64,000 bases of DNA, from positions 25,482,001 through 25,546,000 of the forward strand of contig OZ024754.1 of assembly GCA_964016885.1 (NCBI GenBank), given 5' to 3'. This document shows, piece by piece, positions 56,698-59,452 of the stretch; position 1 is the first letter of the stretch, and each line of letters opens with the position of its first letter. The stretch is from Eledone cirrhosa (lineage: Eukaryota). The position numbers and the translations under genes are program-made. The notes below the pieces were generated by a model. The model had not been told where the DNA came from. It was given only the letters and a program-made list of their open reading frames with translations, and did no database searches.

Positions 56698-59452
56698 ATA
56701 GTAATAATAATAAATTTGAAGACTAAAATCCAAAGAGGGCTCGATAAGGATAAATATATATCAAATATATAAGAACCGTAGAGTACTGGGTTTAAAATCA
56801 CATCTGATCTCAACATCCTGGACCGGACCGAACCTCTGGACCCTATTTCTCCCCACTTTACCCTGAAGGATCACAAATCCAATTTTCCGAACAACCCCTC
56901 TATTCGGCTTATTAACCCTACGAAGTCCGATTTAGGTAGACTTAGTAAAACGATTCTTGATAGAATTATACCTGAAATTAGAAGTTTGGCCCCTCTTGCA
57001 CTGTGGAACAATTCTTTCGCGGTGATTGGTTCAACGGCATATGTAACAAGGAACATTGCCGTTTTATCCAATTCGACATCAACAATTACTACTCCTCCAT
57101 CACTTTACCACTTCTCCTTAGAGCTATCAATTTCGCTAAAACACGCACAGTGGTTAAGGATTTCGAAGTCGATGTCATCCTCAATGCCCGAAAGTCGGTG
57201 ATTAATTTCGACGACTCTATTTGGATAAAAAAATCCAATAGTACCCCATTCGGCGTGCGTATGGGCGCCAGTGACTCTGCGGAGGTTACTGATCTTATTG
57301 GCCTTTTCCTTCTTTTCTCTATCAATGTCGAATTCCCCAACGCGGCCGGTGGTTTGTACGTGACGATGGTCTTTTGACCATGACTAAGTGCGGACCTCGT
57401 GCTTGCGACAGGTTCAGAAAAGAACTCACAGCCTTCTTTAAAGGTTTCAACCTCTCTATACAGGTTGAGGCCAATCTCTCGGTCGTTAATTACCTTGACG
57501 TTACCCTCAATTTATTGAATGGGTTGTATTACCCGTATAGAAAGCCGAATGATACGCTTAATTACATAAGTAAGCATTCGAACCATCCTGCCAGCATAAC
57601 CAAGAACCTGGTAAGAAACGTTTCGTTGAGGCTTTCCCGTCTTTCCAGCAACGAGCGTATTTTCAACGACCATTCCACTTATTACAATGAAGCTCTTGCT
57701 CGAAGTGGATTTGTCGATAAGGTAGCTTATACTGAGTACGAAAATAGACCTATAAGAAATAGATCCCGTCGCATTTGTTGGTATAACCCACCATATAATA
57801 TGGAGGTGACCACACCATTAGCTAAGATCTTTCTTTCCCTTATTACGAAGCATTTTTCCCCCTACACATAAATATAGTAAAATTTTTAATAGAAATACTA
57901 TTAAAATTTCTTACTCTACGACTCCTAACCTTGCACATAACATCACAGCTTCAAATTTAGCTAAACTACCTAACCGTAGGAGCACGTGCAACCCTGTAGT
58001 TAGTACTAACTGTAATTGTAGGAATCGGGCTGATTGCCCCATATCCGGGAAATGCTTCTCTAGTAACATTGTCTACAAATGTAAGGTTGTAACACCCACG
58101 TCCCGTAGGGCCTACATAGGGTTAACCGCCAATAGTTTCAAGCAGCGCATTTACATGCATACCCATTATTTTCGTTACCCTCTAAGAAGGAATATGACGT
58201 CACTTTCAGCTTATATCTGGAGTCTAAAAGACAACCACACCCAATATAAGTTACACTGGGAGATCCTAGCTAGGGCTAGATCGTATAACGGAAATAAAAG
58301 ACCATGTGACCTCTGCGCCGCTGAGGCCCTGGAAATACTCTACGCCACAGACCACATCTTAAACAAAAAATCTGAGGCAATTTCGGCTTGTAAACATAAA
58401 TTGCACAAAACTTTCCTGTATCACAGCCCCACGTTATACCCTAACGGATAGTACGATCTATACGTGGATATTTTACGTCTTGATGTGGGAGCTAAGTATA
58501 TGTTTTGTTTATTCCTTTACTTATTTGCATAGGTAAGTATGTTTACTCGTTTGTTTTGTGAAGGTACGTATACCTTCCCGTACGTATATTTGATTGTTTG
58601 AGCGTATAATATTATATATTCTGGTACATAGGGTTTGGCTATGTGTATACGGGAGTTTTGCGTCTGTGTGAGTATGCGGGTTCGTACGTATGGTGGGTGT
58701 GTGTATATGTGTACTTCTTGTTTTAGTTGACTTACGTCTCCGAACATTCGTGTATTTACATGTAGGTATGTGTGTGCGCTTGTTATATACGTATTTATTT
58801 ATTTATATACGTTTATATAATTATTTATTTATTTGTATACACGCATACACACACACACATATTTATATGTGCGTGGTTTTGTATACCTATGGTAAGGTTT
58901 TGCGTATGCTTGTGTATGTACGTATTTGTTTGCGAGTATGTATTTATTTATTTCTATTACTTCTGTATTGTATTTATTTACTTGTTCTTAACTCTGTAGC
59001 GGAGATTCATTTGGTCTCCTAGTTAGAATTTTAGTCTACGACTTCTGCTATACCATTTACGTGGTTTTGTCATTGCGTGCTATTGTTCTCCACGCTCCGC
59101 ATATGACGTATTATCTTCGTTTTTTCGTTCATTGCCAGAGAACGTCTCTATGCACCACCTAAGAGAACATTAGTCTACGACCTCTTTTATACCATAAACG
59201 TGTTTCTGTCTTTGCGCGTAATTGTTTTTCAGCGCTCCTATTAATGACGTATCTTATTCGTTTTTTCCCGTTCTTTGCCAGCGAACGTTTCCACGAACCA
59301 AAGTATCGTCTTCCTGTCTTCCTCCGGTTGCAACGTTTTTTGAAATATCCACTTCTGCGTTTACAGATTGACTTTGTTAGTTTCAGAAGATCCCGTTAAG
59401 GGTGAAAGCAGCGATTCTTTGCCTAAACTTTAATCTGTTATTTTAATAAATA
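56698..59452 (+). mobile_element. 5'-truncated Naiad-type PLE whose inverted 5' piece (56698-56784) is only the 3' extension
   Basis: RT/GIY-YIG remnants; 56698-56784 is the reverse complement of 40379-40463; HHR-like variant at 59379-59429. Confidence 0.92.
56790..58451 (+). pseudogene. PLE RT + GIY-YIG, frameshifts near 57005, 57358 and 57868
   Basis: TLKDHK, RLINPTKSDLG, FIQFDINNYY, FGVRMGASDSAE, LY(R)DD, VNYLDVTL, WYNPPY, CNCRNRADCPISGKC, NIVY..YIG. Confidence 0.92.

Follow-up and report, generated by a model that had tools for sequence, protein, structure and literature searches.

Insertions of endonuclease-bearing (EN+) Penelope-like elements (PLEs) carry an inverted, 5′-truncated copy and a one-sided tail of 30–40 bp (PMC8557442, PMC3846280, available portions), and PMC8557442 counts the origin of the inverted arms and of the one-sided tail among the open questions. 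The insertions analysed here share with them the head-to-head inverted arms, the pLTR tandems, the tail at one end, the hammerhead in the pLTR and the microsatellite targets, but their tails are 39–170 nt long. In the accessible text of both papers the tail is optional, and no pairing rule, count or end-fixing hairpin is stated. A first-pass annotation of this DNA had given inverted 5′ pLTRs and 3′ tails as known in PLEs, and the one-sided tail is indeed standard PLE anatomy (same sources). Within PLEs, the Hydra clade has DKT and RW[KR] motifs, a CxCX5C linker, CxxC and CxH in the endonuclease, a hammerhead and a (TA)n target (PMC8557442, section 11); its elements are generally below 3 kb, a tendency rather than a diagnostic trait. 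Three consensus sequences of the clade (Hydra-2_Amil, Hydra-1_Ajap and Hydra-2_Ajap) share the hairpin presented below, which the available part of that paper does not describe.

With Poseidon_Ac, a PLE of a different clade, both target strands were cut and extended in vitro from two internal starts flanking the tail, by a predicted dimer, and hammerhead cleavage was not required (Frangieh et al. 2024, PMC11167929, available portions). The two starts, the extension of both strands and the predicted dimer all have counterparts, observed or proposed, in what follows, whereas the Poseidon_Ac starts lie in an AC-rich stem-loop inside the ORF and those described here a little 5′ of twin hairpins upstream of it. 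The accessible text of that paper reports no strand difference and no analysis of paired products, and leaves the steps after initiation unvalidated. In the twin, or proposed dual, priming of L1 both target strands likewise prime and give inverted cDNAs, joined there with little or no microhomology, but the second site comes from opportunistic internal annealing, and the arms are non-overlapping (PMC2837659, available portions). Here non-overlapping fragments were found in 2 of 14 insertions and overlapping arms in the other 12, and both sites were fixed within families. Finally, the non-coding tandem hammerhead units mobilised by PLEs and known as non-LTR retrozymes may resemble families F, G, I, K and P below; the available text on them (bioRxiv 10.64898/2026.07.22.740005) makes no mention of tail, hairpin, stem-loop or priming.

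The two starts flanking the tail, both-strand cutting and the predicted dimer are thus already published (PMC11167929, in the portions seen), and our long end is the known PLE “tail”. A search of the accessible literature returned no statement of a pairing rule or of twin hairpins; we have not found in print that short and long ends pair, nor that each kind of end precedes a bulged hairpin, the one at the long end being a second copy of that at the short end. As PLE anatomy was already known, the gain is mechanistic and no new element class is proposed: the finding is a mechanistic variant of that anatomy. A pairing rule combined with a defined RNA signal at both starts makes the mechanism directly testable. 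If true, a reverse transcriptase (RT) of the telomerase sister group would be positioned by an RNA element that is not itself copied, and both-strand priming would be the rule in PLE integration, as opposed to an accident in L1.

Hydra-type elements in the window

The window, the whole 64,000-nt stretch of DNA analysed, has a GC content of 31% and comprises more than 50 segments set apart by (TA)n runs. It is crowded with EN+ PLEs, mostly Hydra-type, nested in (TA)n; these flanks hide any target-site duplication. Broken ORFs were found in families A (2024–3503), B (9123–10219 and 18067–20956), D (56785–58451) and E (25632–28079), the family letters (A, B, B2, C ... Y) having been coined in this analysis. 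All four, frameshifted or truncated as they are, align to full-length proteins with an RT plus a GIY-YIG endonuclease at the C-terminus; the closest named match is from Argonauta, a cephalopod, at 47% identity, and Pfam GIY-YIG matches in the window are weak, below the cut-off. The insertions also show partial tandems (the pLTR) and an inverted 5′-truncated copy.

The CxCX5C linker was detected by motif scan in A, B and D and by eye in E, CxxC and CxH near the end of the endonuclease in A, B and D, the DKT motif in B and E, and an RWR variant in B; the focal D copy is truncated upstream of the DKT/RWK motifs. No CCHH motif was seen when the Hydra-type ORFs were read by eye. Judged by their motifs, these elements are Hydra-type, sharing with the clade the linker, DKT, CxxC/CxH, the hammerhead and (TA)n insertion. 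They depart from it in size, since the family B unit (16134–20933), with a long UTR and an asparagine-rich insert, reaches ∼4.8 kb. Identity to a related locus (L088), whose 3′ end resembles Hydra-2_Amil by eye, is 32–47%. Two further ORFs, at 51336–53046 and 54379–55032, have a CX2-5CxxC linker and are not Hydra-type. Searches for related loci with the N-terminal piece, and among viral contigs, gave no match.

Exact hammerhead cores lie in the pLTRs of B, B2, C, Q and P, and degenerate ones in D, E and H. Tandem units of 466–680 nt make up families F, G, I, K and P, among which only P and G were seen to have an intact core. Rfam returned for the window one HH9 match, below the gathering score, among the matches listed; the others listed are microsatellite and fold-back noise.

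Pairing of short and long ends

Ends were typed by self-comparison of 37 inter-TA segments and by mapping of junctions, both outward 3′ ends having to belong to the same family. A long end carries an extra 39–170 nt relative to the short end (length in brackets below). The two-armed insertions are:

446..758, family C, short + long; the long arm, 663–758, is tail only and stops at the short site
785..5555, family A; long left end (+161), short right end on the ORF arm
7668..12354, family B; short left end, long right end (+101) on the ORF arm; templated inserts at 9085–9160
13501..15726, family B, divergent copy; left end short, right end long (+100)
16133..23684, family B, partial tandem; the short arm holds the full ORF, and the inverted long arm spans 21959–23684 (+102)
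30766..31071, family C; long left (+93), the arm stopping inside the hammerhead core; short right; exact duplicate at 33426–33731
31132..31969, family Y, lacking the Hydra hairpin; left end long (+39), right end short; with a duplicate at 33786–34623
36288..37703, family F, tandem; short arm of 38 nt, the other arm long (+121); in the read-through copy the long site is followed by hairpin 2
39669..40462, family D; short left, long right (+89)
45026..46045, family B2; left end short, right end long (+102), the long arm stopping in hammerhead stem II
48258..48992, family N, lacking the Hydra hairpin; a perfect fold-back with a short left and a long right end (+57)
59797..60737, family I, tandem; left end long (+170), right end short; the long site at 60388 is followed by hairpin 2
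62490..63421, family P, tandem, lacking the Hydra hairpin; left end short, right end long (+68); hammerhead at 62751
25068..28313, family E, short/short; Hydra-type ORF on the minus arm
46240..47239, family G, short/short; in the tandem copy at 46769, the short site is followed by hairpin 1
49185..50829, family Q, short/short; exact hammerhead core
53755..54151, family H, short/short; fold-back without loop

To these is added the insertion at 56701–59454, on which we focus:

56701..56784, minus strand; long arm, the family D tail alone, extending from the long site as far as the 5′ strand of hairpin 1
56739..56783, minus strand; hairpin 1 of family D (CTC-stem...stem-TC-GAGC), mapped from 40379–40424, its first base lost at the junction
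56785..58451, plus strand; Hydra-type ORF, 5′-truncated and frameshifted, with RT, CxCX5C linker, GIY-YIG with CxxC, and CxH (tblastn, translation and motifs)
58452..59454, plus strand; family D 3′ UTR/pLTR, with a degenerate hammerhead-like core at ∼59383–59415 and the short end at 59446–59454

One further arm was left out because it is joined to a family Y arm:

38483..39187, minus strand; long arm of family K, made up of one unit and the tail and ending at the family's own short site

The block 29506–31963, 100% identical to 32206–34617, was counted once, and family M (53034–53410, 61950–62155, 63722) and 61049–61825, which resisted typing, were kept outside the count together with two mixed-family joins. 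Among the resulting 18 two-armed insertions, 14 are short+long, 4 short/short and none long/long. The excess of short+long pairs proposed in the first-pass annotation is therefore present within the window (exact p = 0.013 under random pairing, and p = 0.051 without the hairpin-less families Y, N and P, where numbers are small). The four same-end pairs were typed as short by their distance from a hammerhead-like core, the degenerate cores of 25068/28313 and 53755/54151 being read by eye: their equal ends lie 48–64 nt past the core with no hairpin between, like other short ends (36–52 nt).

All ten short/long pairs listed in that annotation were found again within a few bases, as was the 446/758 case, but three others had been missed (31132/31969, 48258/48992 and 62490/63421). 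Likewise, the three exceptions with two similar ends are all real, the list lacking 49185/50829. The claim that the long end is reproducible held for the site, which is fixed, and not for the wording of its sequence, which at 12354 reads ...ttaatcct rather than ...ttaaccct.

Either end may bear the ORF, as had been noticed: it lies on the short arm at 5555, 16133 and 59454, and on the long arm at 12354. Of the 14 short+long insertions, 7 have the long arm as their minor arm and 7 the short arm. The 12 insertions with overlapping arms hold the same 38–1631 nt in both; the two without overlap are 446–758 and 56701–59454. In these, as the annotation had it, the inverted pieces 56701–56784 and 663–758 are essentially the tail skipped by the short end. 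The former matches only the family D tail at 40380–40456 (98.7%), and the latter is the C tail from 2 nt before the short site.

Pairing is not obligatory, as is clear from the short/short pairs and from lone long arms at 29502–29913 and 53493–53628; the idea that a long end never stands alone was rejected on account of these arms and of others in the second host described next. Families Y, N and P pair short with long without the hairpin, which is thus dispensable for pairing in general. The pairing rule may be general to EN+ PLEs, the hairpin being the Hydra-clade way of setting the sites.

Pairing was also read by eye in another animal host, in 17 stretches of host-derived contigs from a bacterial assembly (G001) and one stretch of a second assembly (G003). 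The 17 were picked partly by the long-end pattern, a choice that favours finding long/long pairs. Nine same-family two-armed insertions could be typed, as 8 short+long (two of them tail-only, one of a non-hairpin family and one only likely), 1 short/short and 0 long/long; L080 7138–8591, L144 1800–2320, L145 1800–2122 and L052 were too rearranged for typing. At least five lone long arms were present, and in two of the two-armed insertions the long arm stops at the short site. Among insertions with a long end, long/long pairs thus number 0 of 14 in the window and 0 of 8 in the other host, which under random pairing would have probabilities of ∼0.02 and ∼0.04.

Hairpins marking the two sites

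The elements share a layout in which the hammerhead is followed after 36–64 nt by the short site, hairpin 1 starts 3–15 nt further on, and the long site comes 38–125 nt later. Hairpin 2 starts 5–9 nt past the long site; next comes the ORF in family B, and otherwise the remainder of the repeat unit. The landmarks of family B are:

20984..21018, minus strand; motif of a type I hammerhead ribozyme within the upstream pLTR, its predicted cut lying after 20984, 51 nt before the short site
20903..20924, minus strand; hairpin 1, beginning 9 nt past the short site 20933
20806..20823, minus strand; hairpin 2, beginning 8 nt past the long site 20831 and ∼55 nt before the ORF start; a weak covariance-model match (E 3.1)

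The bulged hairpin has the form CTC-stem-loop-stem-T[TAC]-GAG. It was found past the short site in 9 of 12 read-through families and past the long site in 4 of 5 (B, F, I and K, not P), for a background of 1.2% per site. The two fixed sites of the first-pass annotation were recovered, but rather than simply bracketing a single hairpin, each site closely precedes a copy of its own.

Related elements from other hosts (89 loci, 62 with enough upstream flank) carry the same arrangement in part. Of the 62 loci, 14 have at least two hairpins in the 260 nt upstream of the ORF match, 19 have one and 29 have none; two or more were found in 8 of 538 ORF-internal control windows and in none of 62 reverse complements. 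With a looser pattern, two hairpins followed the hammerhead in 32 of 68 related loci. TA junctions in the related loci fall into two groups, ∼32–75 nt past the hammerhead without a hairpin and ∼92–118 nt past it with one, and in loci L046 and L087 the long junction lies just before hairpin 2. By eye, published consensus sequences have a hairpin after the hammerhead in Hydra-2_Amil and Hydra-2_Ajap, and both hairpins ahead of the ATG in Hydra-1_Ajap.

The upper stem covaries: its pair 1 is kept in 81 of 82 distinct hairpins (C-G in 52, U-A in 29; shuffle mean 62.6), and 51 cells show two-sided change, a number reached by none of 500 shuffles; the lower four pairs were set by the search pattern and count as no evidence. 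A model built from 43 other-host hairpins gave 17 window matches at E ≤ 0.3, of which 16 are at tail-type positions and one in an ORF. Rfam gave no match at E ≤ 0.05 in six related loci, so the hairpin is not a listed family there. The 241-nt region folds no better than shuffles (z −0.3), and hairpin 2 is absent from its minimum-energy structure.

The 18 junction sites have an alternating TA run of 3.9 nt on average, compared to 1.75 nt nearby, a difference inflated by the choice of the best position wherever the junction was ambiguous. This suggests that UA-rich sites could provide fine registration through a few base pairs with the TA primer. A stronger version, in which UA-rich patches pairing with the primer set the sites by themselves and the hairpins do something else, draws on the same enrichment and is highly implausible: family B sites offer only 1–2 nt of alternating UA, yet are fixed genome-wide, many patches elsewhere are unused, and the pairing rule is left unexplained.

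Two primings, on one RNA or on two

At 785, 16133 and 56701, each arm holds sequence that the other lacks, so neither was copied from the other and two primings are needed. On these comparisons, two independent primings at two fixed RNA sites are supported, which is the part of the annotated scheme (both target strands priming on one RNA or an RNA dimer) that stands; the arm overlap would also fit two RNAs. Our preferred reading, to which we give a probability of roughly 0.6, has the RT-endonuclease acting, likely as a dimer, on both strands of (TA)n: it would cut each of them and likely prime each at a different fixed site of one RNA, the sites likely being set by the two hairpin copies. The wider proposal that Hydra-clade PLEs integrate by programmed twin priming, with each subunit of a dimer docked on two hairpins priming its own target strand a little 5′ of its hairpin, so that a single event would produce the inverted arms and the tail at one end and make partial tandems necessary, is a tentative one, at slightly less than even odds. 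The dimer and the cutting and extension of both strands are transposed to these families from Poseidon_Ac, and would apply here by analogy.

The following course may be envisaged. The dimer would nick both strands of (TA)n, with each RT sitting on one hairpin, which would stay uncopied, and the TA 3′ end of the target would pair by a few bases with the UA-rich patch just 5′ of the hairpin. Both cDNAs would then extend toward the RNA 5′ end, with microhomology or snap-back joining them head to head. The long-primed cDNA, on reaching the short-primed complex, would either stop there, leaving tail-only arms such as 56701–56784, or displace it; alternatively, the two subunits could sit on different repeats of a tandem or circular RNA. 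As copies ending at either site are without hairpin 2, only partial tandems would regenerate a usable template. The inversion junctions, for which the annotation had suggested a search for microhomology, show overlaps of 0–6 nt (36324, 47049–53, 60588), templated inserts (9085–9160, 63168–74) or snap-back palindromes (21758–22165, 48596, 53960).

Priming on one RNA explains both the missing long/long pairs and the stops at the short site. Such stops were seen for 3 of 15 long arms in the window, at 56784, at 663 (2 nt past the site) and at 39185–39187; three stops in a 15-nt zone have a rough P of 0.04–0.0004 if stops are uniform over 300–1500 nt. The focal long arm ends one base into hairpin 1, 6–7 nt short of the short site, and the truncated ORF is borne by the short arm, 56785–59454. 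A tail-only arm ending at the short site is as twin priming on one RNA predicts. At the focal arm join ∼2–5 nt of overlap are possible, the ORF side being without a reference in the window.

Some observations stand against the one-RNA reading. Frangieh et al. saw the same start-site use on both strands (PMC11167929, available portions), and plain twin priming on one RNA does not give the arm overlap seen in most insertions, for which strand displacement, another repeat of a tandem or circular RNA, or an additional RNA would be required. To our knowledge, PLE reverse transcriptases are without RNase H.

Dual priming at the same two sites, with the subunits holding two RNAs, one read from the short site and the other from the long, remains the main rival, and we consider it unlikely. 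It has been proposed for L1 (PMC2837659, available portions), dispenses with strand displacement for the overlapping arms, and accommodates the short/short pairs as well as the head-to-head joins of different families without a TA remnant at 38483–39446 and 50904–53410, although such joins are also explicable as deletions between neighbouring insertions. Two equivalent RNAs, however, give no reason for the absence of long/long pairs, nor for long arms halting at the short site.

Quite improbable, in our estimate, is a single priming with subsequent fold-back synthesis, by self-priming and possibly with an antisense strand as template, after which the endonuclease would trim one arm, and its tail with it, at a fixed position in the DNA. 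Self-priming (PMC3846280) and “EN-mediated resolution” (PMC8557442) have been put forward earlier, in the portions available; palindromic centres are common (48258, 53755, 21758–22165, 39182–39263), and short/short pairs could arise in this way. Against it, fold-back cannot produce a longer, ORF-bearing short arm with the tail on the other arm alone, as at 785, 16133 and 56701, and the position of the ends follows that of a covarying hairpin, and does so on the sense strand alone.

Were the RNA cut at the short (and long) site and the two pieces used for ordinary 3′-end priming, tail-only arms would be full copies of the excised tail, and the exact stops at the short site as well as the fixed ends would be accounted for. 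We regard this as very unlikely, as 12 of 15 long arms read through the short site, the hammerhead cut sits 36–64 nt upstream of it, and initiation in vitro was internal on intact RNA (PMC11167929, available portions).

That the arms are independent insertions of different age, or read or assembly fold-back artefacts, as the annotation's refuting case had it, is negligible in our view, even if the 100% identical 2.4-kb duplicate of the window means that the assembly may contain errors: arms are far more alike (0–4.7% difference within one insertion, 0.3–0.8% in family B) than separate family B insertions (6.5–24%), they differ by substitutions and indels, and both junction types recur in contigs and in the Illumina reads of two further samples, the long type in another species as well. 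Between arms there was no excess of A-to-G changes. When arms were compared three ways in tandem insertions, neither arm could be assigned to a particular RNA copy as its template.

The read evidence comes from a comparison of public reads and contigs with 20560–21450. Loose ends in (TA)n were found at the long site, 20830, in 342 and 245 reads of two samples and in 8 contigs, and near the short site, at 20941, in 95 and 69 reads; a contig of another species has one at 20835. Across 20830 contig depth drops from 42,767 to 313. As junctions recur in other samples, they represent single real events, and the loose ends together with the depth cliff indicate that the ends are real and fixed, and no fold-back artefact. 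Piles of molecule ends at 20835, 20930–20933, 21004 and 21022 were dropped as evidence, because they coincide with TTAA words and may be RAD cut sites, and summed contig depth, in which the tail has about half that of the hammerhead-to-short-site stretch, was set aside as it gives no copy number. In two other samples, loose read ends without TA were recorded at 20932 (67 and 99 reads, probably one junction) and at 20933 (57 reads, mixed); they point the same way as the long arms that stop at the short site.

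Termini of the arms and the hairpin flanks

In several insertions, the 5′ end of the minor arm, the lesser of the two inverted arms, falls inside the hammerhead or at its border (30910, 39734 and 45869 in the window; L148 and L149, host-derived loci of assembly G001), and these ends do not coincide with the predicted hammerhead cut. One lone arm in the other host (L152, 1203-1308) starts 1 nt past the predicted cut. Three segments open with the same few bases, TTGCCTCC, immediately after a TA run (29502, 30299 and 61527), and this shared start may correspond to a fixed 5′ end of the family K RNA.

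Alignment of elements from other hosts revealed a conserved ACTYT on the 3′ side of the hairpin and a TATA-like patch on its 5′ side; the ACTYT is mostly lost among the families of this window.

Head-to-head joins and a duplicated block

Two head-to-head joins unite arms of different families, without TA remnant:
38483-39446, family K long arm and a 41-nt snap-back of a family Y arm, with a 3-nt overlap at the join
50904-53410, RT-EN arm (CX2-5CxxC linker) and a hammerhead-bearing arm, joined at 53033/53034

These were produced either by two-RNA events or by deletions between neighbours. A 2.4-kb block is present twice, at 29506-31963 and 32206-34617, with 100% identity except for TA lengths; either the block was duplicated very recently or the assembly contains it twice in error.

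Other families and sequences

Family J, a 130-nt family of lone long arms (1-85, 53493-53628 and 62312-62443), carries the best-scoring hairpin, and in two instances only a TA run separates it from family M. The intervals 23771-24963, 29970-30202 and 41421-41951 hold a retrozyme-like 420-nt tandem repeat family that has internal TA tracts and a hammerhead core, the latter at:
24096, hammerhead core
24516, hammerhead core
41666, hammerhead core

TA runs also flank an unrelated non-LTR RT fragment (42106-43275; Pfam RVT_1, E 1e-16). In family B, the interval from RT to linker contains an in-frame, asparagine-rich insert of ~130 aa (18900-19300 and 9160-9575), resembling the N-rich inserts of rotifer Penelopes (PMC3846280). 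Finally, Hydra-type PLE contigs with TA arrays (loci L079-L089) were found inside bacterial genome records (G001-G005) and are probably animal host DNA binned into bacterial assemblies.
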